Assembly: GCA_016124335.1 (NCBI GenBank)
Contig: WGNX01000009.1
Span: 184,034 to 248,033, forward strand
Length of the DNA stretch: 64,000 bases
DNA from: Alphaproteobacteria bacterium
Lineage (GTDB): Bacteria > Pseudomonadota > Alphaproteobacteria > CACIAM-22H2
Direction: 5' to 3'
The notes under the pieces were generated by a model. That model was given only the letters and a program-made list of their open reading frames with translations, was not told the origin of the DNA and did no database searches. Numbering within the stretch: position 1 is the first letter of the stretch; each line of letters begins with the position of its first letter. Positions 4,779 to 24,123 of this stretch are shown in pieces. The position numbers and the translations under genes were made by a program.

Positions 4779-4984
4779 CGTAGGCAAGTATGTGCGAGGT
4801 TTTCTATCCCGACAACAGTGCGGCGCGAATCGACAAGGCTCGGGAAGGGCCTATCTGTTTACAAAAAATTCCTAAAATTGTAGATTTCTGGGGATTGCCT
4901 GGCGACCGGCGGCCTCCGCGCCCTGCCGCCAGGATCGTTTACAGGGTTGCGCGACTGGCGCGCGGCCGGCGTCGGGGAAGAGGC

Positions 4985-5371: not shown

Positions 5372-5402
5372 ACTGCCGGTTCGTCACGCCCGGAGACCCG
5401 GC

Positions 5403-5807
5403 ATGCCCCCGACACCCTATCTGTTCTTCGACGGCCGCTGCGAAGAGGCGGCCGAATTCTACAAGAAGGCGATCGACGCAGAGATCGGCCTGCTGATGCG
5501 CTTCAAGGATGCGCCCGATCCCAAGCCGCCGGGCGATCCGAACAAGGTCATGCACGCGGCGCTACGCGTGGCCGGTGGCGAAATCATGATGTCGGACGGC
5601 TATGCGAAGGGCAATCCCGAGTTCAAGGGCTTCAGCCTGTCGCTGACCGCGAAAGACGAGGCCGACGCAACGCGCATGTTCGACGCGCTTGCCGAAGGTG
5701 GCAGCGTGACGATGCCGCTGGGCCCGACGTTCTTCTCGCCCTGTTTTGGCATGCTGACCGACCGCTTTGGCGTCGGCTGGATGATCATCGTCCAGCCAGC
5801 AGGTTAG
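5403..5807 (+). CDS. VOC family / PhnB-like protein
   Basis: PYLFFDGRCEEAAEFY, VMHAAL, FGMLTDRFGVGWMI. Confidence 0.9.
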   Translation: MPPTPYLFFDGRCEEAAEFYKKAIDAEIGLLMRFKDAPDPKPPGDPNKVMHAALRVAGGEIMMSDGYAKGNPEFKGFSLSLTAKDEADATRMFDALAEGGSVTMPLGPTFFSPCFGMLTDRFGVGWMIIVQPAG

Positions 5808-6625
5808 AGCGCGAATTCCGCGCGCGCCTGCATGGCGAGATAGCCGCCCGGCCCTCGCGCCCACAATACCGCGCCCTCGCCTTCCTTGCGCCCGCACAGT
5901 TCGAACGGATGCGTATCGAAAAGCGGCGACATCGCGCGGAATTCGAATCTCTTGAGGGCACGGCCTGACCGTTCGACCGCCAGGTCCTGCAGCATCGTGG
6001 CCACCATCGGCCCGTGCACGACGAGCCCGCCATAGCCTTCCACGTCGGTCGCGTAGCTGCGGTCGTAATGGATACGGTGGCCGTTGAACGTCAGTGCGGA
6101 ATAGCGGAACAGCAGCACCGGATCGGGCACCACGCGGCGCGACCAGTCTTCGCCCGCTGGCGCCGGCTGGGGCTTGGGCGCGGGGTGCGCCGGATCGGGA
6201 TCGGCGCGGTAGACGATGTCGTGCCATTCCTCCAGCCGCAACGCGCCTTCTGCCGAAATCCCGTGGTGTACGGTGACGAAGACGAGGGCGCCCGTCTTGC
6301 CGTGCTTTTCCTCGACCTTCTCGATGCGCGAAACGCGCGTTGCAACGGCATCGACGGGCAGCCGCGAATGATAGTGAAGCCGCCCGCCCGCCCACATGCG
6401 GCGTGGCAGGGCGACCGGCGGCAGGAATCCGCCGCGCTTCGGGTGCCCGTCGCGGCCCAGATCGCGCGCCCTCTCGACCGCATTGAAAAACGCCCAATGC
6501 CAGCCCGGCGGCACGGCATCTTTCGGCGGATCGCGGTCGAACGTGGCCGCCAGCGCGGCAAGGCGTTCGCCATGGATCGTCTCGGTGCGCGTCTCGCTGC
6601 GGCCGATCCAGTCCGCGAGGTTCAT
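5804..6625 (-). CDS. Double hot-dog acyl-CoA hydratase (mesaconyl-C4-CoA / itaconyl-CoA hydratase-like)
   Basis: DGHPKRGGFLPP, RRMWAGG, LFRYSALTFNGHRIHYD, LVVHGP. Confidence 0.85.
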   Translation of the reverse strand: MNLADWIGRSETRTETIHGERLAALAATFDRDPPKDAVPPGWHWAFFNAVERARDLGRDGHPKRGGFLPPVALPRRMWAGGRLHYHSRLPVDAVATRVSRIEKVEEKHGKTGALVFVTVHHGISAEGALRLEEWHDIVYRADPDPAHPAPKPQPAPAGEDWSRRVVPDPVLLFRYSALTFNGHRIHYDRSYATDVEGYGGLVVHGPMVATMLQDLAVERSGRALKRFEFRAMSPLFDTHPFELCGRKEGEGAVLWARGPGGYLAMQARAEFAL

Positions 6626-7737
6626 GCGAACTCCGCGCGGATCGCGTCCGTGTGCTGGCCCACCGCCGGAACGGGACCAAGTGCCGGCGCACGCACCCCG
6701 TCGACGACCGGCGGCGGTGCGGGGATCGCAACGGGGCCAGCCGGCGTATCGATTTCGACGCGACGGAGTTGCGGGTGTCTGGAAAAGCGCGCGACGTCGT
6801 TGAGCTCGCCGAACGCGATGCTGCCTTTGTTGAGCCGCGCCACCAGATCGTCTCGCTTGCGCCGCGCGAAGGCGGCGGCAATGTGCGCGTCAAGCGCCGC
6901 GCGGTTCTTCACGCGCAGCACGTTGGTCGCGAATTCGGCCGCGACCGGCTCTTCGAGGACATGGGCGCAGAAATTCCCCCATTCGCGGTCGTTCTGCACC
7001 GAGATCACGATGGGGATGCCGTCCGACGATACGAAGGCGCTGTAGGGTGCGACGGACGGATGTGCGAGGCCCACGCGGCCCGGCGCCTTGCCGCCATAGT
7101 CGTGATGGAGCAGCGGCACGGCCATCCAGTCGGCCATGCCGTCGAACAGCGAGACCTTGATCGATCGGCCTTCGCCCGTCTTCCCTCGCGCGATCAGCGC
7201 TTCGAGGATCGCCTGATGGGCGTACATGCCCGCCGCGATGTCGCACACCGAAACGCCCACGCGGCCGGGTGCATCGGGCCCGCCGGTGATCGAGGCAAGG
7301 CCCGTTTCGGCCTGCACGAGCATGTCGTAGCTTTTCATCTTCGCATACGGGCCTTCGTCGCCGTAGCCGGAGATGTCGACGACGATGAGACGCGGATATT
7401 TCGCCCGCAACTCCTCGGTGCCGAAACCCGCGCGCGCGGCCGCCCCCGGCATCAGGTTCTGCACGAACACGTCGGCCTTCGCGAGGATACGGTGCAGCAA
7501 TTCCGCATCGCCCGGCACCTTGATGTCGGCCACGAGCGACTGCTTGCCGCGGTTGAGCCACACGAAATAGCTCGCCTGCCCCTTGGCGACCGCATCATAG
7601 CCGCGCGCGAAATCGCCTTCCGCACGCTCGATCTTGATGACGCGGGCGCCCGCATCGGCAAGGCGCGAGGTGCAATAGGGTGCGGCGACCGCCTGCTCGA
7701 GGCTGAGGACGAGAATGCCATCGAGTGCACCCGCCAT
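6622..7737 (-). CDS. CaiB/BaiF family III CoA-transferase
   Basis: LEQAVAAPYCT, GARVIKIER, WLNRGKQS, VSVCDIAAG. Confidence 0.93.
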   Translation of the reverse strand: MAGALDGILVLSLEQAVAAPYCTSRLADAGARVIKIERAEGDFARGYDAVAKGQASYFVWLNRGKQSLVADIKVPGDAELLHRILAKADVFVQNLMPGAAARAGFGTEELRAKYPRLIVVDISGYGDEGPYAKMKSYDMLVQAETGLASITGGPDAPGRVGVSVCDIAAGMYAHQAILEALIARGKTGEGRSIKVSLFDGMADWMAVPLLHHDYGGKAPGRVGLAHPSVAPYSAFVSSDGIPIVISVQNDREWGNFCAHVLEEPVAAEFATNVLRVKNRAALDAHIAAAFARRKRDDLVARLNKGSIAFGELNDVARFSRHPQLRRVEIDTPAGPVAIPAPPPVVDGVRAPALGPVPAVGQHTDAIRAEFA

Positions 7738-7738
7738 G

Positions 7739-8887
7739 TCAGTACGACCTCGGCAGGTCGAGCACGTGCTCGGCGAGATAGGCGAGGATCAGGTTCGTCG
7801 AGATGGGGGCGACCTGATAGAGCCTTGCCTCGCGGAACTTGCGCTCGACATCGTATTCTTCGGCAAAGCCGAAGCCGCCATGCGTCTGCAGGCAGGCCTC
7901 GGCCGCCTTCCACGAGGCATCGGCGGCCAGCATCTTGGCCATATTTGCCTGCGGCCCGCACGGCTCGCCCGCTTCGTAGAGGTCGAGCGCCTCGCGCACC
8001 ATCAGTGCCGCCGCCTGCCCGTCGGCATAGGCGCGCGCGATGGGAAACTGGATGCCCTGGTTCTGCCCGATGGGCCGGCCGAACACGACGCGCGTCCGCG
8101 CATAGGCGCTCGCCTTTTCCACGAACCAGCGCATGTCGCCGATGCATTCGGCCGATATGAGGATGCGCTCGGCATTCATGCCGTCGAGGATGTAGCGGAA
8201 GCCGCGCCCTTCCTCGCCGATGCGGTTTTCGGCCGGCACTTCCAGATCGTCGAAGAACACCTCGGTCGTCGCGTGGTTCATCATCGCGCGCAGCGGCTTG
8301 ATCGTCAGCCCCTTGGCCTTGCGCATGTCGACGACGAAGACCGATAGCCCCTCGGTCTTCTTCGCGACCTTGTCCTTGGGCGTGGTGCGCGCGAGCAGCA
8401 GCATCAGGTCGGAATGTTCGGCCCGGCTGGTCCACACCTTCTGGCCGTTGACGACATATCTGTCGCCCCTGCGCTCGGCCGTCGTGCGGATCGCGGTCGT
8501 GTCGGTGCCTGCACTGGGTTCGGTCACGCCGAACGCCTGCAGGCGCAGCTCGCCCGACGCGATGCCGGGCAGGAAGCGCTGCTTCTGTTCGGCACTGCCG
8601 TGCCGCAGGATCGTGCCCATCGTGTACATCTGCGCATGGCATGCACCGCCGTTTGCGCCCGATGCATGGATTTCCTCGAGGATCGCGGCGGCGGCCGAAA
8701 GCCCCAGGCCCGAGCCGCCATATTCCTCGGGGATCAGCACGGCGAGCATGCCGGCACTCGTCAGTTCGTCGACGAATTCTTTCGGATAGGCGCGGTCGCG
8801 ATCGAGCTTGCGCCAGTATTCGCCCGGATATTTCGCGCACAGCGCGCGGACCGACTCCCGGATTTCCGGATGTGCGGGCGCGCGCAC
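7739..8887 (-). CDS. Acyl-CoA dehydrogenase
   Basis: FGVTEPSAGTD, NGQKVWTS, QTHGGFGFAEEYDVERKFRE. Confidence 0.95.
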   Translation of the reverse strand: MRAPAHPEIRESVRALCAKYPGEYWRKLDRDRAYPKEFVDELTSAGMLAVLIPEEYGGSGLGLSAAAAILEEIHASGANGGACHAQMYTMGTILRHGSAEQKQRFLPGIASGELRLQAFGVTEPSAGTDTTAIRTTAERRGDRYVVNGQKVWTSRAEHSDLMLLLARTTPKDKVAKKTEGLSVFVVDMRKAKGLTIKPLRAMMNHATTEVFFDDLEVPAENRIGEEGRGFRYILDGMNAERILISAECIGDMRWFVEKASAYARTRVVFGRPIGQNQGIQFPIARAYADGQAAALMVREALDLYEAGEPCGPQANMAKMLAADASWKAAEACLQTHGGFGFAEEYDVERKFREARLYQVAPISTNLILAYLAEHVLDLPRSY

Positions 8888-8889
8888 GG

Positions 8890-9891
8890 CTAGCCTGCCC
8901 GCTTGCGGAGGTCGGCCAGCAGTTCGGCCGGCACCTTGATGCCGCCGGTCGCGGCAGCGGCGCGCAGCTTGAGCCGCCGGTCGCCGGGAAGGCGCGTGCC
9001 CGGCTGCGCGAGGATCGCGGCGAGCAGCATTTCGAGGCGTTGCGCGAACGCAGGTCCGGCAAAACGCATCGGGTCGATCAGCAGGAAGAACTGGCCCACG
9101 CGCGGTGGCGGGCCTTTGGCATCGAAGAACGAGCTTGCCTCGTAGCCGTAGTTGGACGCCGTCAGCGTCGCGGCGAGGATCTCGACCATCAGCACGAGGG
9201 CCGCCCCCTTCGCCTCGCCCAGCGGCAGCATCGTGCCGGCCATGCCCTTTTTCGGGTCGGTCGTGGGCTTGCCGTCGGGGTCGAGTGCCCAGCCTTCCGG
9301 GATCGCCTCGCCCTTTTGCGCCGCCACCATCAGCTTGCCGCGCGCGACCTTCGACAGCGACAGGTCGATGACGAGCGGTGCCTGACCGGCGCGCGGTGCG
9401 GCAAACGCGATGGGGTTCGTGCCGAACAGCCCTTTCGAGCCGCCCCAGGGTGCGATCGCCTGCGGCGAATTGCCGAAGCCCAGCGCCACGAGACCGGCCT
9501 TCGCCGCCACTTCGACGTGATAGCCGGCCGCGCCGAAATGATGCGAGTTGCCGATGCCGATGCCGACGACGCCGGCGTTGCGCGCCATCTCGATCCCGCG
9601 CGCGAGCCCGAGCGCGATTGCCGGATAGGCGAAGCCGTCCTTGGCATCGACGAACAGCGCGCCGGGTGCCGAAACGCGCAGTTCCGGAACTGCCTTGCCG
9701 GCAACCTTGCCCGCCTTCGCCTGATCGGCATAGGCGGCCACGCGGCTGAGCCCGTGGCTTGCCAGCCCGTCAGCCTCGGCCGCCACGAGCGCGTCGGCCA
9801 CGGCGCGCGCGTTGGCTTCTTCGGTGCCGGCGGCGACCAGCGCCTTCAGCGCCAGCGCATGCGCCTCGCTCAGCGAAATCGTCTCGCTCAT
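8890..9891 (-). CDS. comC: Ldh_2 family oxidoreductase, probable (R)-sulfolactate dehydrogenase
   Basis: SHGLSRV, NSHHFG, GTNPIAFA, KGAALVLMVEIL, RLPGDRR; in an operon with slcC-like and suyAB genes. Confidence 0.75.
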   Translation of the reverse strand: MSETISLSEAHALALKALVAAGTEEANARAVADALVAAEADGLASHGLSRVAAYADQAKAGKVAGKAVPELRVSAPGALFVDAKDGFAYPAIALGLARGIEMARNAGVVGIGIGNSHHFGAAGYHVEVAAKAGLVALGFGNSPQAIAPWGGSKGLFGTNPIAFAAPRAGQAPLVIDLSLSKVARGKLMVAAQKGEAIPEGWALDPDGKPTTDPKKGMAGTMLPLGEAKGAALVLMVEILAATLTASNYGYEASSFFDAKGPPPRVGQFFLLIDPMRFAGPAFAQRLEMLLAAILAQPGTRLPGDRRLKLRAAAATGGIKVPAELLADLRKRAG

Positions 9892-10838
9892 TTCGACCCC
9901 TTGATGCCGAGCTTGGCGAGCGCGCCGCGCACGTTTGCGACCGTTACCGAGGAAACGCGCACGTTGCCCTCAGCGGTGACGCCCGCGATATGCGGCGTCA
10001 GCCACAGGCGGGGTGCACCTTCCAGCGCCGAGCCCGCCTTCAGCGGTTCCTTGTCGTAGACGTCGATCAGCGCGCCGCCGATGGTGCCGGCCTTGAGTGC
10101 GGCGGCAAGGGCCGCTTCGTCGATGATGCCGCCACGCGCCGTGTTGATGAGAAGTGCCGTCTTCTTCATCTTCGCGAGGAGGCCGGCATCGAACATGTTG
10201 CGCGTTTCGGGCGTCAGCGGCACGTGCAGCGAGATCACGTCGCATGTGGCCGCCAGTTCGTCGAGCGTGGCGATGCGCGCCACACCATATTGCTTCCACG
10301 CCGGATCGTCGGCCTTCACCATCGGGTCGTAGGCCGCCAGATCCATCTCCAGCGCCTTCGCACGGACGGCAGTTGCCCTCGCGATACCGCCGAAGCCCAC
10401 GAACCCGAGCCGCTTGCCGTAGGCCTCGCCCAGCATCAGGTCGTTGCGTGGCCATTTGCCGGCAAGCACGTCGGCATTGGCCTTCCATACGTCGCGCAGG
10501 CCCACGAGGATCGCGCCGATCACGTATTCGGCGACCGAGACCGTGTTGGCGCCTGTCGCCGGGAAGACCTGGATGCCGCGGCGCGCGCATTCTTCCATGT
10601 CGATATTGTCGAGACCCACTCCCAGCCGGCCGATCACCTTCAGGTTCTTCATCGCCGCCAGCACCGGCCCGCGCACCTGCGTGAGGTTGCGCACGATGAT
10701 GGCCGGGCTTTCCGCCGCGAGCTTCGCCAGCTCCTCGGGTTTCGAAACCAGCGTGCGGTCGTAATGGACCTTGTAATCCTTCGCCAGATCGTCGACCGCC
10801 CACTGGTCGACGAATTCGCTCACGACGATGTCGTACAT
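9888..10838 (-). CDS. slcC: D-2-hydroxyacid dehydrogenase, probable (S)-sulfolactate dehydrogenase
   Basis: N-terminal DIVVSEF...IIVRNLTQV, RLGVGLDNID, PATGANTVSVAEY, INTARGG, TPHIAGVT; paired with comC as in the sulfolactate racemase system. Confidence 0.72.
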   Translation of the reverse strand: MYDIVVSEFVDQWAVDDLAKDYKVHYDRTLVSKPEELAKLAAESPAIIVRNLTQVRGPVLAAMKNLKVIGRLGVGLDNIDMEECARRGIQVFPATGANTVSVAEYVIGAILVGLRDVWKANADVLAGKWPRNDLMLGEAYGKRLGFVGFGGIARATAVRAKALEMDLAAYDPMVKADDPAWKQYGVARIATLDELAATCDVISLHVPLTPETRNMFDAGLLAKMKKTALLINTARGGIIDEAALAAALKAGTIGGALIDVYDKEPLKAGSALEGAPRLWLTPHIAGVTAEGNVRVSSVTVANVRGALAKLGIKGSK

Positions 10839-10839
10839 C

Positions 10840-12453
10840 TCACATCTGCTCCATGTATTCGGCCGGATCGACGACCGCGTCGATGACCGTGAATTTCCGC
10901 GCCGAGACCGCCTCGGCGAACGCCTTCTCGAAGGCCGCGAGCGTCTCCACGCGCACGCCGGCCGCCCCGCACGCCTCGCCCAGACGATCGAACCGCGGGC
11001 CTTTGAAATCGACCGCGCGCGGGGCCATCTGCATTTTGGCCTGTTTGAGCTTGATTAGCGAGAGCGCCTGGTCGTTCAGCACGACCACGACGATCGGCAA
11101 GCCAAGCTCGGCCGCCAGCGGCAGTTCGCCCGCCGTCATCAGCATGCAGCCATCACCCACCAGCGCCACGACGGGGGCTTCGGGGCAGGCAAGCTGCGCG
11201 CCGATCGCGGCAGGCACGGCATAGCCCATGCAGCACAAGCCGTTGGACTGGAGAAGCTGGCCGGGCGTGCGGCACTTGATCGCGTGGTTGGCAAGGATGC
11301 GGTGCGCGCCCACATCGACCGTGAGCTTCCAGTCCGGCGCGATTTTGTCGGAGACCGCCTTGAAGAGTCCGGCCGGCGAAATGCCCTTCTTCGGCGCGCG
11401 CGGGCGTACGATATGCGCGACGGACGTGCGGCAGGCATCGAGTTCGGCCGCCGGCCAGGCACCGGCGCCCTTCTCGCCCGAGGACGCGAGCTGGGAAAGC
11501 ATCGCGCCGAGATCGCCGTAGCATTCGCGGCCCAGCGGGAAGATGCGGTGGTTGAGCGGACCCCAGTCGAGCGTGACGACGGCGCGGTCCTGCGGCCACG
11601 CGTCAACCCAGGCATCGCGCAGTTCGATCGGGTCGAAGCCGACACACACGATCAAGTCGGCGGCGCGCACGATCTTCATGTTCTCGGCATCGACGATCGG
11701 CGACAGGCCGACCGCGCCCAGGCAAAGCGCGTGCGTCTCGTCGACCGTGCCCTTGGCCTTGTAGGTGGCGAAAAACGGAATGCCCCAGGATTCGAGGAAA
11801 TTGCGCAGCGCCGCCGGAACGCCGTCATGCACCGCGCCGCGCCCGATCAGCGCCAGCGGCCGCCGGGCGCGCGAAATCGCCAGCCGGACATCGACCGCCG
11901 CTTCGGGCGCAAGGGCCGCGCGCTCGACCGCAACGGGATGCGCGTCAAAACTCTCCTTCGAGTCCGCGCGGCCCAGATCGGCCGGCACGTTTAGCATCAC
12001 GGGCCCCGCCGGATAGCTCATCGCGATATCGAGCGCGCGCGCCAGATGCTGGGCGGGGCGCGCGGCGTTGAGCGTGGCGGCGTACTTCGTGACCGGCGTC
12101 GCCAGCGCCACATGGTCGAAGACCTGATGGTTGTAGATATGCATGTTGGACGTCGCCATCTCGCCGGTCAGCACGGCGACAGGCGAACGTTCCATCAGCG
12201 CACCGGCGATGCCGGCCGTCGCATTTGCGATGCCGGGACCGAGCGCCGGGATCAGCACCTGCGGCTTGCCCGTGATCTGGCACACCGCATCGGCCATGAA
12301 GGCCGCGGCGGGTTCGGACTTCGCGAGGACGAAGCGGATGCCCGCTTCTTCGCACGCGCGCACGGTTTCCAGCACGTCATTGCCGGGAATTCCGAACGCG
12401 AAGGAGGCGCCCCAGTTCTTGAGGGTCGCGGCGAGCTTGTCGGTCACTTTCAA
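10840..12453 (-). CDS. Thiamine-diphosphate-dependent enzyme (acetolactate synthase-like fold)
   Basis: FGIPG, SEPAAAFMA, GPGIAN, GDG...VLND ThDP motif; TTG start (GTG at 12447 is an alternative). Confidence 0.9.
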   Translation of the reverse strand: MKVTDKLAATLKNWGASFAFGIPGNDVLETVRACEEAGIRFVLAKSEPAAAFMADAVCQITGKPQVLIPALGPGIANATAGIAGALMERSPVAVLTGEMATSNMHIYNHQVFDHVALATPVTKYAATLNAARPAQHLARALDIAMSYPAGPVMLNVPADLGRADSKESFDAHPVAVERAALAPEAAVDVRLAISRARRPLALIGRGAVHDGVPAALRNFLESWGIPFFATYKAKGTVDETHALCLGAVGLSPIVDAENMKIVRAADLIVCVGFDPIELRDAWVDAWPQDRAVVTLDWGPLNHRIFPLGRECYGDLGAMLSQLASSGEKGAGAWPAAELDACRTSVAHIVRPRAPKKGISPAGLFKAVSDKIAPDWKLTVDVGAHRILANHAIKCRTPGQLLQSNGLCCMGYAVPAAIGAQLACPEAPVVALVGDGCMLMTAGELPLAAELGLPIVVVVLNDQALSLIKLKQAKMQMAPRAVDFKGPRFDRLGEACGAAGVRVETLAAFEKAFAEAVSARKFTVIDAVVDPAEYMEQM

Positions 12454-12472
12454 GGGTTGGTCCTCGGCGTTG

Positions 12473-14802: not shown

Positions 14803-14803
14803 C

Positions 14804-16824: not shown

Positions 16825-17705
16825 CGCTGCATGCCCCAGCGCCGCACGGTGCGCGCCTCGATCGCGCGGAAGATCACGCCTTCGACGAACAGGCCGATGA
16901 CGATGACGGTGAGAAGGCCGGCAAACACGTTGGCGGTTTCCAGCAGGTTGCGGTTTTCGAAGATGTACCAGCCAAGCCCGCCCGAGCGCGAGGAGACGCC
17001 GAACACGAGTTCGGCCGCGATCAGCGTGCGCCACGCGAACGCCCAGCCGATCTTGAGGCCCGCAAGGATCGAGGGGAACGCTGCCGGGATCAGGATCTTG
17101 CGCACATAGGCAACACCGCGCAGGCCGAAATTCTGCCCGGCCATGCGCAACGTCTCGGAAACCGACTTGAAGCCCGTGTGCGTGTTGAGCGCCACCGCCC
17201 ACAGGACCGAATGGATGATGACGAAGACGAGCGAGGGAATGCCGAGCCCGAACCACAGGAGCGCCAGCGGCAGCAGCGCGATCGCCGGCAGCGGGTTGAA
17301 CATCGCCGTCAGCGTCGAGAGCAGGTCGTTGCCGAAGCGCGTGGAGACGGCAAGCGTCGTGAACACGGCGGCGATCGCAAGCCCGGCCGAATAGCCAAGG
17401 ATCAGCACCTGCAGCGTCGTCGTCATCCGGCTCAGCAGCGGGCCTTTGACGAAATCATGCCAGAGCGCCTGCGCCACGTCCCAGAAGGGCGGGAACATCA
17501 GCGGATTGTCGAGCGTGCGGCCGTAGATCTCCCACGCCAGCGCCAGGAACGCGACGATGGCGGCACGTCGTACCCATGCCTGGTTCCACACGCGCTCGAA
17601 GGCGGACAGCGGCCGCTCGACTTCGCCGAACTGGGCGGCCGCGACATCGCGCAGCTCGAACTCGGCGCGGACCGGCGGTTCGATCTTGCCTGCGGTGTCA
17701 ATCAT
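16821..17705 (-). CDS. NitT/TauT/SsuC-type ABC transporter permease
   Basis: NPLPAIALLPL, GWAFAWRTLIAAEL, hydrophobic segments. Confidence 0.93.
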   Translation of the reverse strand: MIDTAGKIEPPVRAEFELRDVAAAQFGEVERPLSAFERVWNQAWVRRAAIVAFLALAWEIYGRTLDNPLMFPPFWDVAQALWHDFVKGPLLSRMTTTLQVLILGYSAGLAIAAVFTTLAVSTRFGNDLLSTLTAMFNPLPAIALLPLALLWFGLGIPSLVFVIIHSVLWAVALNTHTGFKSVSETLRMAGQNFGLRGVAYVRKILIPAAFPSILAGLKIGWAFAWRTLIAAELVFGVSSRSGGLGWYIFENRNLLETANVFAGLLTVIVIGLFVEGVIFRAIEARTVRRWGMQR

Positions 17706-18507
17706 GGGCGTCGGCGGCCTCGGCCTCGATGCGTTCGGCGAACAGCATGTCGTGGATGCGTCGCTGCAAGGTCTGGAATTCCACCCCGCCCTGCGCGGTG
17801 TGACCGAACTGGTGGCAGTTGAGCTCGGCCTTCACGCGGCCGGGATGCGGGGACAGCACGAGGATGCGGCTGCCCACCACGATCGCCTCCTCGATCGAGT
17901 GCGTGACGAACAGCACGGTGAAGCGCACGTCGTCCCACAGCTCGAGCAGTTCTTCCTGCATCTTTCGCCGCGTCAGCGCATCAAGCGCGGCATAAGGCTC
18001 GTCCATCAGCAGGATGTCGGGTTCCATCGCCATCGCGCGCGCGATGGCCACGCGCTGCTTCATGCCGCCCGACAGCATGTGCGGATAGACCTCGGCGAAT
18101 TTCGTCAGGTTGACCTTCTCGATGAAATGGCGGGCACGCTCGGCGGCTTCCGCGCCGCGCCACTTGCCCGCGCACTCCATCGGGAACATCACGTTCTGCA
18201 AAACGGTCTTCCAGGGCAGCAGCTGGTCGAATTCCTGGAAGACCATCATGCGGTCGGGGCCGGGCCGGTCGATGATCCGGCCATTGAGCGACATCGTGCC
18301 CTCGACCGGCGTCATGAACCCGCCCACGCCCTTGAGCAGCGTCGACTTCCCGCAGCCCGACGGCCCGAGCAGCACGAAGCGATCGCCGCGATGTACCTCG
18401 AAACTCACGCGGTACGTCGCGGTGACCAGATGCTCGGTCGTCTTGTACTGGAGCGTGACCCCGTCGACCTTCAGGATCGGCGGGGCGCTCCGGCTCGCGT
18501 CGGGCAT
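17698..18507 (-). CDS. NitT/TauT/SsuB-type ABC transporter ATP-binding protein
   Basis: GPSGCGKS, LSGGMKQR, LLMDEP, VTHSIEEA. Confidence 0.95.
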   Translation of the reverse strand: MPDASRSAPPILKVDGVTLQYKTTEHLVTATYRVSFEVHRGDRFVLLGPSGCGKSTLLKGVGGFMTPVEGTMSLNGRIIDRPGPDRMMVFQEFDQLLPWKTVLQNVMFPMECAGKWRGAEAAERARHFIEKVNLTKFAEVYPHMLSGGMKQRVAIARAMAMEPDILLMDEPYAALDALTRRKMQEELLELWDDVRFTVLFVTHSIEEAIVVGSRILVLSPHPGRVKAELNCHQFGHTAQGGVEFQTLQRRIHDMLFAERIEAEAADAHD

Positions 18508-18523
18508 TCTCAAGCCGCTCCCC

Positions 18524-19546
18524 TCACGAACCCTTCAGGGCGTGCATTTCGGGGAAGTACATCTCCTTCCAGTCCGCCGGAAGGACCTTGATCGTCCCGG
18601 TGCGGTGCATGAAATCGGCGTACTTCATCGTGTTGCGGGGCACGTTCGTGAATTCGTGCTGCGGATCGTTCAGCAGCGACATCACGAAGTCCTTCGACGG
18701 CGAGCCCTTTTCCACGCGCATGTAGATCTCGGCCGCCCGCGCCTTGTCCTTGGTGATGATCGCCTGCGCCTCGGCCAGCGCGTCGTAGAAGGCCTTGTAG
18801 ACCTTCGGATTCTGCGTGCGGACCTTCTCGGTCGTCCACATGAAGTTGAACGAGCACGAGCCGCCCAGCACGTCGTAGTTCGACAGCACGCGATGCACGC
18901 GGCTGTCGAGCAGCTCCTGGTTCTGGAACGGCGGCGAGGCGAAATGCGAGGTGACCTCGCTCTTGCCCGACATCATCGCGTTCATCGCGTCGGGGTGCGA
19001 CATCGAGACGGTGAGGCTGTCGAGCTTGTCGTGCTTGCCGACACCGAATTCCTTCTCGCACGCCATCTGCAGCGTGATCGCCTGGATCGAGACGCGAACC
19101 GCCGGCAGGCCGATGCGATCCTTGTCGGAGAAATCCGCCAGCTTCTTGACGTTGGCGTTGATCGTGTTGAGGTAGAGCGGCAGCGAATTGAGCGAGGCCA
19201 CGCCCTTGACGTTGAGGGAGCCCTTGGTCTTTGCCCACAGCACGATCATCGGCCCGACGCCGCCGCCGGCAAACTCGAGATTGCCGGAAATGAGCGCGTC
19301 GTTGATCGGCGCGCCGCCCGCGAATTGCAGCCAGCTCGTCTTCACGTTGGGCAGGCCCGCGGCCGCTGCATGCTTCTCGACGAGCTTGAGGTCTTCCATG
19401 ATCATCAGCGGCAGATAGGAAATGCCGAACTGCTTGGCGATGCGCACTTCGCCGATTTCGCTCTGCGCGCGCACGACGGCGGGGGCCGCGAGCACTGCGC
19501 CGGCGCCGATGACGAATTCGCGGCGTGTGGGTCGGATCGTGGTCAT
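18524..19546 (-). CDS. NitT/TauT-type ABC transporter substrate-binding protein (Tat signal)
   Basis: TRREFV twin-arginine leader ending VRAQ; QFGISYLP; adjacent to the ATPase and permease genes. Confidence 0.92.
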   Translation of the reverse strand: MTTIRPTRREFVIGAGAVLAAPAVVRAQSEIGEVRIAKQFGISYLPLMIMEDLKLVEKHAAAAGLPNVKTSWLQFAGGAPINDALISGNLEFAGGGVGPMIVLWAKTKGSLNVKGVASLNSLPLYLNTINANVKKLADFSDKDRIGLPAVRVSIQAITLQMACEKEFGVGKHDKLDSLTVSMSHPDAMNAMMSGKSEVTSHFASPPFQNQELLDSRVHRVLSNYDVLGGSCSFNFMWTTEKVRTQNPKVYKAFYDALAEAQAIITKDKARAAEIYMRVEKGSPSKDFVMSLLNDPQHEFTNVPRNTMKYADFMHRTGTIKVLPADWKEMYFPEMHALKGS

Positions 19547-19625
19547 GGGTCGTCTCTCCTCCTCTTTGCGAACTTTGTTTGCCGGGCGTTTTCGCCTCTG
19601 GCCATTTGGATTTTTTCTATCACGT

Positions 19626-20354
19626 TCAAACCACCAGAACGACTCCCGAGGCCAGCAGCAACGCCAGCACGATGCGGCGGAACTGCACGTCGTCCACGCG
19701 CGCGTAGAGTTTCAGCCCCAGCCATACGCCCAGCGCCACCGCCGGCAGGCACCACGCGAAATCGGCGATTGCCGTGGGGCCGATCCCGCCGTCGAGCCAG
19801 AGCCAGGCGAGTGCCGCTGCCTGCATGGCGAAGATGTAGGGTTGGTAGACCGCGCGCTGCTCGTTCTTCGTCCAGCCGCGAAGGCCGGTCCAGATCGTGG
19901 GCACCGCGCCCGACAGCCCGCCAAGCCCGCCCATGGCGCCGCCCACGAAACCGATCGCCGCATCGAGCGGCCGCCCGCCGGCGCTGATCGGCTGCGGCTG
20001 GCCGCGCAGCAGCATGAACAACGCATAGGCGACGAGGAACGCGCCGATCCCCTGCTTGAGCGGGCCGGGCGAAACGCCGTGCAGCAGCGCCACGCCGAGC
20101 GGAATGCCGACGAGCCCGCCGACGAGGAACGGCGCCAGCCGCTTCCAGTCGATGGCATCGCGGATCGCGAGGATCGAGAAGCACTGTGCGATCAGGCTTG
20201 CTGCGAGTACGAGCGGCGTCGCGTCGATGGGGGCGCGAAAATGCAGGAAGGTGCCGGAAGCCACGAGCGCGAAGGCAAAGCCCGCGAGGCCCGAGGCAAT
20301 GGCGGCCACGAACGCGCCGCCGACAAGCCACGCTTCGCTTGGGATCGCGCTCAT
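19626..20354 (-). CDS. TauE/SafE family sulfite exporter
   Basis: SGLAGFAFALV, GGLGGLSGAVPTIW, multiple TM helices; lies in the suyAB operon. Confidence 0.85.
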   Translation of the reverse strand: MSAIPSEAWLVGGAFVAAIASGLAGFAFALVASGTFLHFRAPIDATPLVLAASLIAQCFSILAIRDAIDWKRLAPFLVGGLVGIPLGVALLHGVSPGPLKQGIGAFLVAYALFMLLRGQPQPISAGGRPLDAAIGFVGGAMGGLGGLSGAVPTIWTGLRGWTKNEQRAVYQPYIFAMQAAALAWLWLDGGIGPTAIADFAWCLPAVALGVWLGLKLYARVDDVQFRRIVLALLLASGVVLVV

Positions 20355-20698
20355 GCGACCCCCACGTTGAAAAGGAACAAAAGGCCCGCGGCGAGCGCGA
20401 AGCCGGCGCTGACGGCGACGGCCGCCTTCTGGCGTGGGCTCCAGGGCAGGAATTCGATGGCAAGCACGCGCAGGCCGCCCGCGAGATGTGCCGCGAGAAG
20501 CACGACAAGGCCGGTTTCGGCGAATTTCGCGAGCGGATTTTCGGTCCAGCGCAGGAAGCCATCGAGTGCCGCCTCGCCGCCGATCGCCTGCCCGAGCGCC
20601 CAGAAATGCAGCGGCAGGAACAGCGCCAGCGCCAGGCCCGAGAGCCGGTGCACGGCGAATGCCCACCAGGCCGGATGATTGCGGTGCGGCCGGTTCAT
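20351..20698 (-). CDS. SDH/FRD membrane anchor subunit (SdhC-like, cytochrome b type)
   Basis: HRLSGLALALFLPLH, AHLAGGLRVL; three TM segments. Confidence 0.85.
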   Translation of the reverse strand: MNRPHRNHPAWWAFAVHRLSGLALALFLPLHFWALGQAIGGEAALDGFLRWTENPLAKFAETGLVVLLAAHLAGGLRVLAIEFLPWSPRQKAAVAVSAGFALAAGLLFLFNVGVA

Positions 20699-21039
20699 CC
20701 GAACAGCCCCCCGACCGCGCGCCAGCCGAACCACACGAGGAAGACCGCGACAGCCGCCGCCGCAAGATCGAGCGCGCCGCCGCGCCAGCCGAACGTCTCG
20801 CGCGCGATCGTGCGCAACCCGAGCGGGGCGTGGATCGAAACCGCAACGACGAAGAGGCCATAAAAGAGGGCCAGTGCCGCAGAGCCGCGCGTACGGCCAA
20901 GGATTTCGGCCGCTGTCAGCCCGCCACGCACCGCGTAAAGGATCGTTGCCAGATGGACGAGCACGCACACGCCGAGCACGGCGGCACTTGCACGCTGCGC
21001 GCCCCAGGCGATCGTCTCGGCGCGCGCGCGGAAATTCAT
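20695..21039 (-). CDS. SDH/FRD second membrane anchor subunit (SdhD-like)
   Basis: AQRASAAVL, HAPLGLRTI; three TM segments; between the Fe-S subunit and the other anchor. Confidence 0.82.
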   Translation of the reverse strand: MNFRARAETIAWGAQRASAAVLGVCVLVHLATILYAVRGGLTAAEILGRTRGSAALALFYGLFVVAVSIHAPLGLRTIARETFGWRGGALDLAAAAVAVFLVWFGWRAVGGLFG

Positions 21040-21749
21040 GCCCCGCCCTTCCAGGCCGCGCGCAGGCTCGCGCGCTTCAGCCCCGCGATCGACGCGGTGG
21101 GATTTAGCGATTTGGGACAGTGCTCGCGGCAGGATTGCTGCGAATGGCACGCATGGCAGCCCGCATCGCCCGCCACGGCCGAAAGCCTTGCTTCCTGCCC
21201 GCCGTCGCGCACGTCGTTGACGAGCGTCCAGGCCCGGTTGAGTGCCGCGGGACCAAGATAGTCGGGGTTCCACGAAACGAGATCGCAGGCCGAATAGCAG
21301 ACCGCACAGCCGATGCACTCGATGCCCGCATCGGCCTGCCGGCGCGCTTCGCTTTCCGGTTCGACGCGCGCGAAATCCGCACCTTCGGCGGCGGAAGGAA
21401 CGAACTTCCCGCCCGCCTTCGCCCACTTGTCGAAGAACGGCGCCATGTCGACCGCGAGATCCTTGATGCGCGGCAGGTTGGCGAGCGGTTCGACCGTCAG
21501 CGGCCCGTCGCCGAGCCTTGCCACGTGCGTGCGGCATGTCCAGCGCGGGCGGCCGTTCACGGTCATCGCACACGAGCCGCACATGCCCACGCGGCACGCG
21601 AATCGGTAGGAAAGCGTGGGGTCGAGCTTGCGCTGGATGAAAGTCACGACGTCGAGCACGGTCTGGCTCTCGCGGCGCGGAACGGAGAAGGTTTCGAACT
21701 TCCCCGCCGCACCGCCGCGCCAGATCCGCGCCTCGATCGTCGCCGACAC
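21036..21749 (-). CDS. SDH/FRD iron-sulfur subunit (SdhB-like paralogue)
   Basis: CRVGMCGSC...C (2Fe-2S), CIGCAVCYSAC and CHSQQSCREHCP cluster motifs; GTG start. Confidence 0.93.
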   Translation of the reverse strand: MSATIEARIWRGGAAGKFETFSVPRRESQTVLDVVTFIQRKLDPTLSYRFACRVGMCGSCAMTVNGRPRWTCRTHVARLGDGPLTVEPLANLPRIKDLAVDMAPFFDKWAKAGGKFVPSAAEGADFARVEPESEARRQADAGIECIGCAVCYSACDLVSWNPDYLGPAALNRAWTLVNDVRDGGQEARLSAVAGDAGCHACHSQQSCREHCPKSLNPTASIAGLKRASLRAAWKGGA

Positions 21750-21757
21750 GCCCTTCC

Positions 21758-22966
21758 TTAAGCGCTCGGATAGAGCTTGGTCATCACGAACTCGCGATGG
21801 CCCAGCGCCTCGGCGCAGGTGTAGCGCCCGTTGCACACGCGGATCATGACGTCGATCAGGCGGTCGCCCGCCTCGTCGAGATCCATCTCGCGGCGCAGGA
21901 TGCCGGAGACGTCGAGATCGATGTGCTCGGGCATCTCGCGCGCCGTCTTCGGGTTCGCCGTGAGCTTGATGACCGGCTCGATCGGGTTGCCGATGACGTT
22001 GCCCTGGCCCGTCGGGAACAGGTGCACGACGAAGCCGGCCGCGGCCTGCAGCGTCACGCACTCGGCCGCCGCCGAGGAGGTGTCCATGAAGTAGAGGCCC
22101 GCACCCTTCTTGGGCAGTTCGGCCGGGCCCAGCACGTCGACATACTTCGTCTTGTGGCCGATCTTCTGGAAATTGCCGAAGGCCTTTTCCTCGATCGTCG
22201 TGAGGCCGCCCGCGATATTGCCCTTGGTCGGCTGGGATTCCGACAGGTCGCTCGTCTTGTGGCGGTTGATCATGTCCTGATAGGCGTTGAAGACGGTCAT
22301 GAACTTGTCGGCGACCTTCTTGTCCATCGCCCGCTTGACCATCTCCTTCTCCGCACCCGTCAGCTCGGAGGTTTCCCCGAAGCAGGTCGTGGCGCCCATC
22401 GGATCGATCTTGTCGATGAGGTTGCCCACCGTGGGGCACGAGGCGAGGCCCGAGGTCGTGTCGGATTCGCCGCACTTGGTCGAAACCCACAGCTCCTCGA
22501 TCGTGCACTGCTCGCGCTGCTTTTCGGTCGCCCACATGACGAACTGCTGGGCGACCCGGCTGGCCTTCTCGATGGTCTTCAGGTCGCCGTTGCCTTCGAT
22601 GGCGAAGCCCTGCACGGGCTTGCCGGTCTTGGCGATGCCTTCCACGACGCGGCCCGTCCAGCCCGGCTCGATGCCGATGACGACGACGGCCGCGACGTTG
22701 GCATTGCAGCCCGTGCCGATCAGCGTGCGGAAATGCAGCGCCAGATCTTCGCCGAACTGCAGCCGCCCGTAAGCGTGCGGCAGGGCGAGCGTGCCCTTGA
22801 TGTTGTTGGCGACCGCCTCGGCCGCCGAATTCGAAAGGTCGTCGAGCGGCAGGATGATGACGTGGTTGCGGATGCCGACGCGCCCGTTTTCGCGGCGATA
22901 GCCCATGAAGGGCAGCTTGCCGACGTTGCGCGAGCGCTTCTTGATGATTGCCGGGGCCTTGGCCAT
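21758..22966 (-). CDS. suyB: (2R)-sulfolactate sulfo-lyase large subunit (UxaA family)
   Basis: [64 protein letters not shown]; split SAF subunit upstream. Confidence 0.88.
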
Positions 22967-22979
22967 GTGGGTCGCTCCC

Positions 22980-23264
22980 TTACCAGCGCTTCGTTTTCAT
23001 GTTGTGGACGTGCACGTGGTCGCCCTTCTTGGCGTCGGCGACGATCTTGCCGATGTCGTGCCCGTACTTGATGACGGTGTCGCCCTTCTTGAGGTCGACG
23101 AGCGCGATCTTGTGGCCGAGCGGAATCGGCTTCAGCGCCTTGAGGCGCACGGTCCCGTCGCCTTCCATGAGCCAGCCTTCGAGTGCCGCCCCGGCCTTGA
23201 CGTTCTCAACGACAATGACACCGACGGTGTCCTTCTTGTCGTGGACGATGAATTGGGTCGCCAT
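22980..23264 (-). CDS. suyA: (2R)-sulfolactate sulfo-lyase small subunit (SAF domain)
   Basis: [39 protein letters not shown]. Confidence 0.88.
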
Positions 23265-23305
23265 TTCCCCCTCGCGGTTTCTTTGATGTTGTCGAACGGA
23301 CGCGA

Positions 23306-23334
23306 ACGCTACGCGCGAGGGTGTAGGGCGTCAA
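23306..23334 (-). promoter_or_regulatory. Putative sigma70 promoter of the suyA operon
   Basis: Minus strand reads TTGACG-N17-TAGCGT, ending about 40 nt upstream of suyA. Confidence 0.55.
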
Positions 23335-23345
23335 CATACTCATAT

Positions 23346-23359
23346 GTCTTATATATGAC
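23346..23359. promoter_or_regulatory. Putative GntR/HutC-type operator
   Basis: Near-palindrome GTCTTATATATGAC in the AT-rich divergent gap between suyA and the GntR gene. Confidence 0.55.
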
Positions 23360-23389
23360 TTTGTAACAGGCCATGCTAACGTCGGCGTC

Positions 23390-24112
23390 ATGGAAATGCC
23401 GCGCGCCCAGCCGCTCTACCGCCAGACCAAGGCCGCCTTGATGCGCCGCATGGTCGACGGCCGCTGGCGCGCGGGCGACATGCTGCCCGCCGAACCCGCG
23501 CTCGCCGCCGAGTTCGGCGTGAGCCAGGGCACCGTGCGCCGCGCGCTCGACGAGCTTGCCCAGATCAATCTCGTCGTGCGCCGGCAGGGCAAGGGCACGT
23601 TCGTGGCCGAGCACACGCGCGAACGCGCGCTGTTCCATTTCTTCCATCTTGTCGGCGACGACGGCAAGCGTGCACTCCCCGGCAGCCGGATGCTGTCGAT
23701 GAAGGCCGGGGCGGCGACGCGCGAGGAATCGCGCCGGCTGAAGCTTGCGGCCGGCACGCGCGTGGTGCGGCTGCACAGGCTGCGCATGCTCGACGGGCGC
23801 GCGGCGATCGTCGAGCGCATCGTGCTGCCCGCCTCGCTCTATGACGGGTTCGAGCGGCTGGACCGCGCGAGCCTGCCGAACGAGCTTTACAAGCTCTACC
23901 AGGAGCGCTGGGGCGTCACGGTCGCGCGTGCGGCCGAGAAGCTCAAATCGGCGCTGGCCGGGCCGGAGGACGCGGCCCATCTGGGCCTGCGCAGCGGCGC
24001 GCCGGTGCTGGAGATCGACCGCATCGCCTATGCGCTTGACGGCAATCCGTGCGAGTGGCGCGTGTCGCGCTGCGATACCTCGGCGCACCACTATGTCTCG
24101 GAAGTGGTCTAG
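23390..24112 (+). CDS. GntR family regulator, HutC/UTRA subfamily
   Basis: PLYRQ, LPAEPALAAEFGVSQGTVRRAL, RRQGKGTFV; UTRA-like C-terminus. Confidence 0.95.
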   Translation: MEMPRAQPLYRQTKAALMRRMVDGRWRAGDMLPAEPALAAEFGVSQGTVRRALDELAQINLVVRRQGKGTFVAEHTRERALFHFFHLVGDDGKRALPGSRMLSMKAGAATREESRRLKLAAGTRVVRLHRLRMLDGRAAIVERIVLPASLYDGFERLDRASLPNELYKLYQERWGVTVARAAEKLKSALAGPEDAAHLGLRSGAPVLEIDRIAYALDGNPCEWRVSRCDTSAHHYVSEVV

Positions 24113-24123
24113 GATCGGGGCCG

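Follow-up and report, generated by a model that had tools for sequence, protein, structure and literature searches.

Two described systems are among the closest to the locus considered here, an operon of 19 genes within a stretch of 64,000 nucleotides from an alphaproteobacterium of the lineage CACIAM-22H2 (GenBank assembly GCA_016124335.1, contig WGNX01000009.1, positions 184,034 to 248,033), called the window below. One is the sulfolactate pathway of SuyAB, SlcC, ComC and TauE, described for Chromohalobacter salexigens and Paracoccus pantotrophus (PMC12421959). The operon shares with it a split lyase of the UxaA family, a D-2-hydroxyacid dehydrogenase, an Ldh_2 enzyme, a TauE exporter and one regulator, but the published clusters, by their description in the accessible part of that paper, are without a succinate dehydrogenase (SDH) or fumarase paralogue. 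The other is the pair formed in the tricarboxylic acid (TCA) cycle by complex II and class I fumarase. The operon encodes paralogues of both, with the same four subunits, domains, iron–sulfur (Fe-S) cysteine motifs and two Sdh_cyt anchors, the same His/Arg/His/Arg set in the dicarboxylate site and the same CQDTG, KGSGSEN, TTSxRM and GKGG motifs in the hydratase. It departs from complex II in its flavoprotein, which has Cys in place of the His that binds flavin adenine dinucleotide (FAD) covalently, a 6-residue insertion and a Thr to Glu exchange, and which scores under the equivalog cut-offs; moreover, the operon copy lies among sulfonate genes and not beside sucABCD-type genes. These second-copy SDH and fumarase enzymes probably degrade a sulfonated look-alike of succinate, because the same pairing with sulfolactate-splitting genes recurs in many bacteria, and it is likely that they form a functional unit of sulfonate catabolism.

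Two further systems provide precedents for the chemistry. In Roseovarius nubinhibens ISM, homotaurine is reported to be converted via 3-sulfopropanoate and sulfoacrylate to sulfolactate, in a thesis by J. Mayer that is cited in the discussion of PMC11489063. The intermediates proposed there and the sulfolactate end point are those considered here, but the window operon has no aminotransferase or aldehyde dehydrogenase that would act on homotaurine. Sulfoacrylate is also an established fumarate analogue for enzymes of the aspartase/fumarase superfamily, as seen in XcbC and XcbD, with which bacteria make coenzyme M (PMC9457059). These enzymes share with the proposed operon route the use of sulfoacrylate as a fumarate analogue in fumarase-related chemistry, but they belong to the class II superfamily and are biosynthetic, whereas the operon hydratase stands in a catabolic context and is an Fe-S enzyme of class I.

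The chemistry of both enzyme families (α,β-dehydrogenation beside a carboxylate, then hydration of the enoate), taken with the linkage to suyAB, points to a sulfonated succinate analogue. We tentatively favor 3-sulfopropanoate as the substrate of the complex II paralogue, with a confidence slightly short of even, and for this route we infer substrate, direction and stereochemistry from the gene content, paralogy, signature and linkage observed. The model proposes that 3-sulfopropanoate, the sulfonate analogue of succinate, would be imported by an ATP-binding cassette (ABC) system of the TauT/Ssu type and oxidized to 3-sulfoacrylate by the complex II paralogue (SdhA-like, SdhB-like and the two anchors), which would pass the electrons to quinone. 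The two-subunit fumarase paralogue, in which all canonical fumarase residues are kept, would then add water to C2 of sulfoacrylate and yield 3-sulfolactate. The isomer that corresponds to L-malate would be (R)-sulfolactate, on which SuyAB acts; it would be split into pyruvate and sulfite, the latter being exported by TauE. The 2-hydroxyacid dehydrogenase and the Ldh_2 enzyme could interconvert the sulfolactate enantiomers via sulfopyruvate, and the divergent GntR regulator may control the whole composite unit. This three-carbon (C3) route is preferred, at that same tentative level, over a four-carbon (C4) one, in that two conserved enzymes would suffice to reach the SuyAB substrate.

The window proteins were scanned against Pfam and NCBIfam, each match being compared with the curated cut-off of its model. 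All 19 operon genes lie on the minus strand, and four of them encode the complex II paralogue. The SdhB-like Fe-S subunit (positions 21036..21749, 237 amino acids, GTG start) has Fer2_3 and Fer4 domains and passes TIGR00384 (187.2 versus 88), and its translation shows the three cluster motifs, CxxxxCxxC...C, CxxCxxCxxxC and CxxxxxCxxxCP. Two membrane anchors adjoin it, one of 114 amino acids (20695..21039; Sdh_cyt, 30.0 bits versus a cut-off of 25.8) and one of 115 amino acids that is cytochrome b556-like (20351..20698; Sdh_cyt, 47.3 bits; TIGR02970, 52.1 versus 52.3). The SdhA-like flavoprotein (12473..14194, 573 amino acids) matches FAD_binding_2 with 257.4 and Succ_DH_flav_C with 91.7 bits, and stays under every SdhA/FrdA cut-off (TIGR01812, 434.5 versus 567.3; TIGR01816, 316.6 versus 727). 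Its highest-scoring NCBIfam model is TfrA of the thiol:fumarate reductase TfrAB of methanogens (NF004900, 506.5 bits); this score is, however, also under its cut-off of 718, and the operon enzyme differs from TfrAB in having membrane anchors and an Fe-S subunit of SdhB length instead of the long TfrB. Canonical sdhA and sdhB genes are present on contig C1 of the genome and are 33–35% (SdhA) and 34% (SdhB) identical to the operon copies, so that the SDH paralogue claimed by the initial annotation is a genuine second copy.

A scan of one genome per species gave at least 598 confirmed relatives, of which the best 80 loci (69–76% identity), mainly from Beta- and Alphaproteobacteria, were used for comparison. 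The flavoproteins of the window and of 78 relatives (two of the 80 loci have no full-length, stop-free SdhA match) were aligned with canonical SdhA, and the resulting signature was rechecked in 18 further, more distant loci. All of them have a Cys where canonical SdhA carries the covalent-FAD His, RSHTVAAQGG of the genome's own SdhA corresponding to GCTRMVQGG. The clade also carries a 6-residue insertion with a basic residue (Arg or Lys) downstream of HPTG, and ITEG is changed to EEG, the substrate Thr being an invariant Glu. The HPTG His, the RDVVSR Arg, the HYxMGG His and the HGANRLG Arg are preserved, which makes four of five dicarboxylate-site residues, if the HPTG His, the ITEG Thr, the catalytic Arg, the HYxMGG His and the HGANRLG Arg have the roles that we take them to have. 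Alignment of the window flavoprotein with Escherichia coli FrdA from the PDB shows the same pattern, and no difference in the signature is seen on pRHL1 of Rhodococcus jostii (53% identity) or on a haloarchaeal plasmid (49%). Signature and retained residues together suggest that the machinery for α,β-dehydrogenation beside a carboxylate has been kept and that part of the substrate and flavin site has been remodelled. The invariance of the remodelled signature argues for a single conserved substrate other than succinate.

The hydratase is made of an alpha subunit of 295 amino acids (14804..15691, GTG start; Fumerase, 302 bits) and a beta subunit of 203 amino acids (14191..14802; Fumerase_C), the latter scoring under TIGR00723 (137.2 versus 145.15) and NF004708 (124.8 versus 269). 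Compared with 7xky_A, the alpha subunit retains CQDTG and KGSGSEN, and the beta subunit retains GTTTSDRM and GKGG of 7xky_B. Changes in the residues facing the distal carboxylate were expected in the beta subunit; all of them are conserved, which speaks neither for nor against a sulfonate substrate.

Twenty window proteins were compared with the 80 related loci by tblastn, ignoring matches that covered less than half of the query; many of these loci are cut by contig ends. The SDH partners recur in most of them (sdhB in 62, the anchors in 60 and 63), as do both fumarase subunits (alpha in 66, beta in 70). The sulfolactate genes are found less often, suyA in 36, suyB in 35, the ComC-like gene in 45 and the SlcC-like gene in 24, and the ABC genes in 21 (binding protein), 30 (ATPase) and 24 (permease). 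When only the 41 loci that extend 9 kb or more on each side are counted, sdhB is present in 40, the window-type fumarase in 37, and suyA together with suyB in 26, and at least one of SuyB, SlcC and ComC is encoded in 33. Where window-type loci have no suyB nearby, a SuyB orthologue (68–79% identity) is encoded elsewhere in the genome in 5/5 cases. Clustering of the unassigned open reading frames (ORFs) of the 80 loci revealed other recurrent partners: TctC, the binding protein of tripartite tricarboxylate-type transporters (TTT), in 36, an additional TauE in 18, LysR in 18, a sulfatase in 8, TauD in 7, a sulfite-oxidase-type molybdoenzyme in 6 and DctA in 5. About 25 loci also encode a thiamine diphosphate (ThDP) enzyme similar to 2-hydroxyacyl-CoA lyase or oxalyl-CoA decarboxylase, CoA being coenzyme A (for instance L024 11711-13387, L081 15727-17352 and L083 7329-8930); the ThDP enzyme of the window occupies the same position but is only 27–28% identical to this family.

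The association is also visible at the level of whole genomes. In 200 evenly picked genomes of the class, all at least 90% complete, 14 are positive for the SdhA-like protein, 20 for SuyB and 6 for both (6/14 versus 14/186), which corresponds to an odds ratio of 9.2 (Fisher p = 8e-4), a figure inflated by relatedness, as kin are not independent. The initial annotation had proposed to look for co-occurrence of this SdhA clade with suyAB, slcC and comC, and to give up its pathway if no linkage to suyAB existed elsewhere; both physical linkage in other genomes and enrichment of SuyB at the genome level were found.

The clade extends over alpha-, beta- and gamma-proteobacteria, Rhodococcus and haloarchaea, and it is present on 18 plasmid or megaplasmid records of PLSDB, from Methylobacterium, Paracoccus, Cupriavidus, Sulfitobacter, Pseudorhizobium, Pseudomonas, Rhodococcus and two haloarchaea. 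Five of these 18 records are typed as conjugative, so that the module is probably mobile. Plasmid pMRAD01 of Methylobacterium radiotolerans carries the full set with suyAB, SlcC, ComC, TauE and GntR, and on pTAV3 of Paracoccus versutus the module adjoins TauE, TTT, Ldh_2, 2-hydroxyacid dehydrogenase and hisD, short-chain dehydrogenase/reductase and alcohol dehydrogenase genes. Cultured strains with the complete window-type set include M. radiotolerans JCM 2831, Methylobacterium sp. Leaf104, Chelatococcus sambhunathii S14, Paraburkholderia diazotrophica JPY565 and Imbroritus primus LMG 32992. A plasmid of Natribaculum luteum (L085 5485-12453) encodes suyAB-like genes, TauE, an ArgH/XcbC-like lyase, seen only at this haloarchaeal locus, and SdhA- and SdhB-like proteins; its annotation lists neither a class I fumarase nor anchors. 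The ArgH-like gene was considered as an XcbC and set aside as evidence, since it passes the argH cut-off (323 versus 279.5) and scores 260 for XcbC, under 575. Single in-frame stop codons interrupt three otherwise full-length matches of the wider comparison, a TAG in an SdhA-like gene (G100:C36:11825-13540), a TAG in a SuyB gene (G135:C1:2431049-2432233) and a TGA in a hot-dog hydratase match (G037:C583:163-978), and these may be pseudogenes or sequencing errors.

Not every member of the flavoprotein clade is accompanied by the hydratase of the window. In a variant module with the order sdhB-anchor-anchor-sdhA-fumA2-fumB2, the flavoprotein has the same signature as the window clade, and the hydratase is 33–39% (alpha) and 26–30% (beta) identical to the window type, with CADTG or CGDTG, no GSEN, and TAS-RF as motifs. 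Such modules lie at L082 12503-17333, L083 10549-15323, L084 10488-15337, L114-L121, L124 and L125, and most of them have no linkage to SuyAB. The 17 variant loci have only the six core genes in common, the fumarase-type hydratase being present in 17/17 and LysR in 7/17. Among the flavoprotein-positive genomes of the class sample that have no SuyB, 7/8 encode the variant hydratase (a match of G152 at a contig end was left out of this typing), and the window type occurs in three genomes, all SuyB-positive; SuyB was also found in 3/5 other variant-type genomes examined. In Pseudomonas sp. MPC6 the module is coupled in translation to a CoA-acylating (methyl)malonate-semialdehyde dehydrogenase (TIGR01722, 695 versus 448.5), whose gene begins within that of the variant hydratase; TauE, the exporter YeiH and a sulfite oxidase are encoded close by. 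In Pseudorhizobium banfieldiae the variant hydratase gene precedes those for YeiH, NIPSNAP, TauE, a tripartite ATP-independent periplasmic (TRAP) system and a succinate-semialdehyde dehydrogenase. If the variant hydratase hydrates the sulfonated carbon, the semialdehyde dehydrogenases beside this module would point to a C3 semialdehyde product.

By its gene content, the operon is a composite. The same order of 19 genes is found in G045, a genome of the same genus, with protein identities of 69–96%, so that the arrangement is not a chance run of ORFs. Three other genomes of the genus (G044, G038 and G031, 98–99% complete) have only tauE and the genes for the 2-hydroxyacid dehydrogenase, acyl-CoA dehydrogenase, CoA-transferase and hot-dog hydratase; neither a SuyB orthologue (best match 37%) nor an SdhA-like gene was found in them. 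In G044 and G038 this five-gene module (L110 6109-10888; L112 10067-14846) contains an SlcC-like gene at 80–82% identity without ComC, and a homologue of the hot-dog hydratase is present in 48/50 genomes of an order-level sample. G047 combines the five-gene module with suyAB, the enolase-family gene and comC; exactly sdhB with the anchors, the ABC genes, fumAB, sdhA and the ThDP gene are missing from it, the other genes being kept. G045, like the window, has these in addition, sdhB with the anchors, the ABC genes and fumAB/sdhA/ThDP standing at three separate places of the operon. Within the genus, the genes for SDH, fumarase, importer and ThDP enzyme occur or are missing as a set, which suggests a joint function. 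The CoA trio, the 2-hydroxyacid dehydrogenase and TauE make up an older, family-wide and independent module, which SuyAB, ComC and the enolase-family enzyme joined, with the SDH, fumarase, ABC and ThDP genes coming after.

The 19 genes, treated as a unit in the initial annotation, are not a single conserved pathway. The enolase-family gene (1/80, a weak match of 30% identity), the window-type ThDP gene at 40% identity or more (1/80) and the CoA trio (acyl-CoA dehydrogenase in 2, CoA-transferase in 3 at no more than 34%, hot-dog hydratase in 0) are nearly absent from the 80 related loci, and the trio with the 2-hydroxyacid dehydrogenase and TauE occurs without SuyAB and the SDH paralogue. The nearest described trio consists of itaconate CoA-transferase, (RS)-methylsuccinyl-C4-CoA dehydrogenase as well as itaconyl-CoA hydratase (PMC12290011), with which the operon shares a CoA-transferase, an acyl-CoA dehydrogenase and a relative of itaconyl-CoA hydratase (8khg, 2.8e-73). 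It differs from the itaconate and methylsuccinate genes in that neither citramalyl-CoA lyase nor MmgE/PrpD is among the 19 operon products by Pfam, and in that the trio always adjoins TauE and the 2-hydroxyacid dehydrogenase in this bacterial family. The five-gene module may form a CoA-dependent desulfonation route, or it may have no connection to sulfonates.

Several observations weigh against 3-sulfopropanoate as the substrate. In the complex II enzymes of E. coli, the covalent FAD bond is held to be necessary for succinate oxidation, and the missing histidyl-FAD site therefore calls the oxidative direction into question, except if the loss is made good by the invariant Cys or by the surrounding protein. 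A Glu at the substrate Thr position is odd for the binding of an anion. The alpha subunit of the hydratase lies above the NCBIfam equivalog for fumarate hydratase (NF004885, 314.7 versus 276), and with all canonical residues in place it may be an ordinary fumarase. In the class sample, 8/14 genomes with the SdhA-like protein have no SuyB orthologue, and most of them carry the other hydratase type. SuyAB, SlcC and ComC are assigned by family, by context and by automatically given names, the scheme leaves the ThDP and enolase-family enzymes without a role, and two routes in one operon, one for the free acid and one for the CoA ester, are seemingly redundant. The thesis precedent is second-hand, coming from one citing sentence that names no enzymes (PMC11489063). 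A joint scheme that goes further, doubtful as a whole, is one in which the complex II paralogue lacks histidyl-FAD, its invariant Cys possibly bears a cysteinyl-FAD, and the electrons of 3-sulfopropanoate go to quinone. The type of hydratase would then set the exit of sulfur: the window type would act at C2 and yield sulfolactate for SuyAB, and the variant type would act at the sulfonated carbon, the α-hydroxysulfonate giving malonate semialdehyde and sulfite without a lyase. The CoA trio beside TauE would do likewise on the CoA ester.

The linkage to SlcC and ComC and the TTT and DctA transporters are, as a further point against 3-sulfopropanoate, equally compatible with sulfosuccinate, the substrate that had been suggested for an SDH/fumarase upper pathway. 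Of that suggestion, the linkage to suyAB and the second copy stand, but its C4 route needs an additional oxidation and a decarboxylation: sulfosuccinate would be converted via sulfofumarate to 3-sulfomalate, and this via sulfo-oxaloacetate (by the Ldh_2 or the 2-hydroxyacid dehydrogenase) and sulfopyruvate to (R)-sulfolactate, which SuyAB would cleave. It would use the same conserved genes (SDH, fumarase and SuyAB, with the ComC-like gene in 45/80 loci) plus one dehydrogenase, the decarboxylation being spontaneous, and the many beta-proteobacterial loci with a single Ldh_2 enzyme would be explained by a redox-neutral oxidation followed by reduction. The flavoprotein keeps all but one of the carboxylate ligands, and its additional basic residues (the Arg of GCTR and the Arg or Lys of the insertion) could hold a sulfonate; TTT transporters in 36/80 loci and DctA in 5/80 also agree with it. 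Nevertheless, we regard this route as unlikely. It is two steps longer than the C3 route and has no conserved enzyme for the decarboxylation, and hydration at the sulfonated carbon would lead directly to oxaloacetate and sulfite, making SuyAB superfluous. The semialdehyde dehydrogenases coupled to the variant module indicate a C3 product, and neither sulfofumarate nor sulfomalate was found in the openly searchable literature. Sulfosuccinate is known chiefly as a building block of surfactants, which counts against it, though the clade is taxonomically wide.

It could also be argued that the substrates of the paralogues carry no sulfonate group (succinate with fumarate, tartrate, or methylsuccinate with mesaconate, for example); the paralogues might then be isoenzymes that sustain this segment of the TCA cycle during sulfite production, or a dicarboxylate module that merely shares genomic islands with sulfonate genes. 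The position of the alpha subunit over the fumarate hydratase equivalog cut-off with all fumarase residues kept would fit this, as would the variant six-gene module, often found with just a LysR gene (7/17) and a transporter and no other conserved partner, and the missing SuyB in 8/14 SdhA-like-positive genomes. This is rather improbable in view of the invariant remodelling of the flavoprotein, which is not seen in the genome's own SdhA and argues for a different substrate, of SuyAB lying within 10 kb in 26/41 full loci, and of the recurrence of TauE, TauD and sulfite-oxidase-type genes. In addition, the genes were gained or lost within a suyAB operon jointly with an ABC importer of the sulfonate type. 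An even less probable possibility is that the flavoprotein catalyses a reduction or acts on a different sulfur compound, either as a quinol:sulfoacrylate reductase, for which sulfoacrylate might arise by dehydration of sulfolactate, or as a dehydrogenase of 3-sulfinopropanoate, cysteate or a methyl-branched C4 sulfonate. Where FAD is bound non-covalently in this superfamily, the enzymes are as a rule reductases of α,β-unsaturated acids or L-aspartate oxidases, which together with the missing covalent-FAD His and the TfrA model as the top match favors such a role, and a gene for 3-sulfinopropanoyl-CoA desulfinase lies near the module on a Sulfitobacter plasmid. On the other hand, the reduction of sulfoacrylate to 3-sulfopropanoate would lead away from SuyAB and gain no carbon, and an amine oxidase needs no hydratase partner, yet fumA accompanies the flavoprotein in 66/80 loci, fumB in 70/80 and a fumarase-type hydratase in 17/17 variant loci.

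If the 3-sulfopropanoate route is correct, candidate genes can be named for the missing step in the degradation of this compound. Homotaurine is one source of 3-sulfopropanoate, and gut Firmicutes form it from dihydroxypropanesulfonate. The conversion of homotaurine is the subject of a 2009 study on Cupriavidus necator H16; this strain excretes 3-sulfopropanoate and is not known to degrade it. According to the 2024 paper (PMC11489063), the thesis was the only report of a bacterial degradation of 3-sulfopropanoate, and for Bilophila the mechanism is described as unclear in a 2026 review (PMC12890257). No description of the enzymes of such an SDH/fumarase sulfonate pathway was found in the literature, subscription journals and supplements not being covered. 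The operon would probably combine known kinds of enzymes with a new substrate and pathway. The well-studied respiratory enzyme family would thereby gain a new class of substrate and a flavoprotein without histidyl-FAD, and two hydratase types that set two desulfonation chemistries would provide a testable case. The clade is also common, with at least 598 related stretches in the species genomes and 14/200 genomes of the class sample, and is often plasmid-borne (18 PLSDB records).

The remaining operon products fit the composite picture to different degrees, and nearly all NCBIfam matches of operon proteins fall under the curated cut-offs, apart from the subfamily model for SdhB and the match of the fumarase alpha subunit. 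The putative sulfo-lyase consists of a SuyA-like small subunit of 94 amino acids (22980..23264) and a SuyB-like large subunit of 402 amino acids (21758..22966), split subunits of the UxaA/GarD family with 13 nucleotides between their genes. The former matches positions 6–79 of the galactarate dehydratase model TIGR03248 (2e-9) and no Pfam family, and its homologues (51–71% identity) adjoin suyB in 36/80 related loci. The latter has GD_AH_second and GD_AH_C domains and GarD (6u7l) as its sole PDB relative, and homologues 83–94% identical to it bear the automatic JGI name '(2R)-sulfolactate sulfo-lyase subunit beta'. The Cys residues of GarD in YGCG and GCE are replaced by other residues in the SuyB-like protein, in loose agreement with the statement that SuyAB lacks the conserved Cys of its family, four of which are named there (PMC6336799).

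Two dehydrogenases had been named slcC and comC in the initial annotation; membership of the respective families is confirmed, but the assignment reaches no further than the family. The SlcC-like protein (9888..10838, 316 amino acids) has the 2-Hacid_dh and 2-Hacid_dh_C domains of D-isomer-specific 2-hydroxyacid dehydrogenases, the family to which SlcC itself presumably belongs; every NCBIfam model is under its cut-off, and its gene adjoins the ComC-like gene. The ComC-like protein (8890..9891, 333 amino acids) belongs to the Ldh_2 family (339.5 bits) and fails the L-sulfolactate dehydrogenase model NF040650 (207.2 versus 500).

Transport would involve the TauE/SafE family anion exporter (19626..20354, 242 amino acids; PF01925, 101.8 bits versus 32.6) and the ABC system. 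The periplasmic binding protein of NMT1/SsuA type (18524..19546, 340 amino acids) scores slightly under the NMT1_2 cut-off (23.7 versus 24.7) and under that of the SsuA family (TIGR01728, 54.7 versus 163.5), and its one relative in the PDB (E = 0.004) allows no conclusion about the ligand. The ATPase (17698..18513, 271 amino acids, TTG start) has an ABC_tran domain and the taurine ABC ATPase as top NCBIfam model (209.4, under 357), and the permease (16821..17705, 294 amino acids) has a BPD_transp_1 domain, its top models SaoP, TauC and SsuC being under cut-off.

The enolase-superfamily enzyme of the MR/MLE group (15688..16824, 378 amino acids; MR_MLE_N and MR_MLE_C) is closest to the L-talarate/galactarate dehydratase model, far under the cut-off (144 versus 500), and a homologue with 41% identity adjoins the Sulfitobacter module. 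The ThDP enzyme is acetolactate-synthase-like (10840..12453, 537 amino acids, TTG start), with three TPP domains and a score of 327.7 for NF006187, under 509. In the CoA trio, the acyl-CoA dehydrogenase (7739..8887, 382 amino acids, GTG start) has three ACAD domains, and its top models, all under cut-off, are acryloyl-CoA reductase, glutaryl-CoA dehydrogenase and 3-sulfinopropanoyl-CoA desulfinase. In alignment it lacks a Glu at what we take to be the position of medium-chain acyl-CoA dehydrogenase and has one at the presumed position of isovaleryl-CoA dehydrogenase. The family III CoA-transferase (6622..7737, 371 amino acids) gives 340.8 bits for CoA_transf_3 and 4ed9 (CaiB/BaiF) as top PDB match, and the hot-dog hydratase (5804..6625, 273 amino acids) resembles itaconyl-CoA hydratase, PDB 8khg matching over residues 3–271 and FAS1_DH_region only weakly.

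Upstream of suyA, the divergent regulator of HutC type (23390..24112, plus strand, 240 amino acids) has GntR and UTRA domains, and homologues of it occur in 33/80 related loci, mostly divergent from suyA. Directly downstream of gntR, a plus-strand gene (24124-25257) encodes a protein of 377 amino acids with no Pfam or NCBIfam match, for which the ESM Atlas gives 'hypothetical protein' clusters only; homologues of it stand divergently beside the tauE/CoA module in G044, G038 and G047 of the same genus.

The reading frames were picked by the GC content of the third codon position (GC3) and by homology, the chosen frames having a GC3 of 0.81–0.92. GTG (sdhB, fumarase alpha, acyl-CoA dehydrogenase) and TTG (ATPase, ThDP enzyme) were chosen as start codons where given above, and such starts could be a few codons off. 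The 19 genes are densely packed on the minus strand between 5804 and 23264, and nine of the junctions computed from the coordinates are overlaps of 4–8 nucleotides and nine are gaps of 1–79 nucleotides, the widest between tauE and the binding-protein gene. Gene families, order and span all agree with those initially annotated. A scan of 4800-24400 for promoters and terminators was uninformative, with 2 promoter-like sites (1.9 on average in shuffled sequence) and 14 terminator-like sites (12.0 on average).

The source assembly comprises 2.9 Mb in 15 contigs and is 74.6% complete. Between 32 and 64 kb, the window contains no additional sulfonate genes; this part includes phenylacetate-type β-oxidation genes, RecQ, an ABC system and a molybdenum hydroxylase. 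The genes at 32943-41739 encode an aldehyde dehydrogenase, enoyl-CoA-type and 3-hydroxyacyl-CoA dehydrogenase enzymes, a thiolase, an AMP-ligase and an FAD monooxygenase, and they resemble a β-oxidation cluster for aromatic acids or of phenylacetate type, with no relation to the sulfonate operon. No gene is called at 31222-32320, and the GC content falls to 0.588 at 30001-32000, compared with 0.62–0.70 across the rest of the window.

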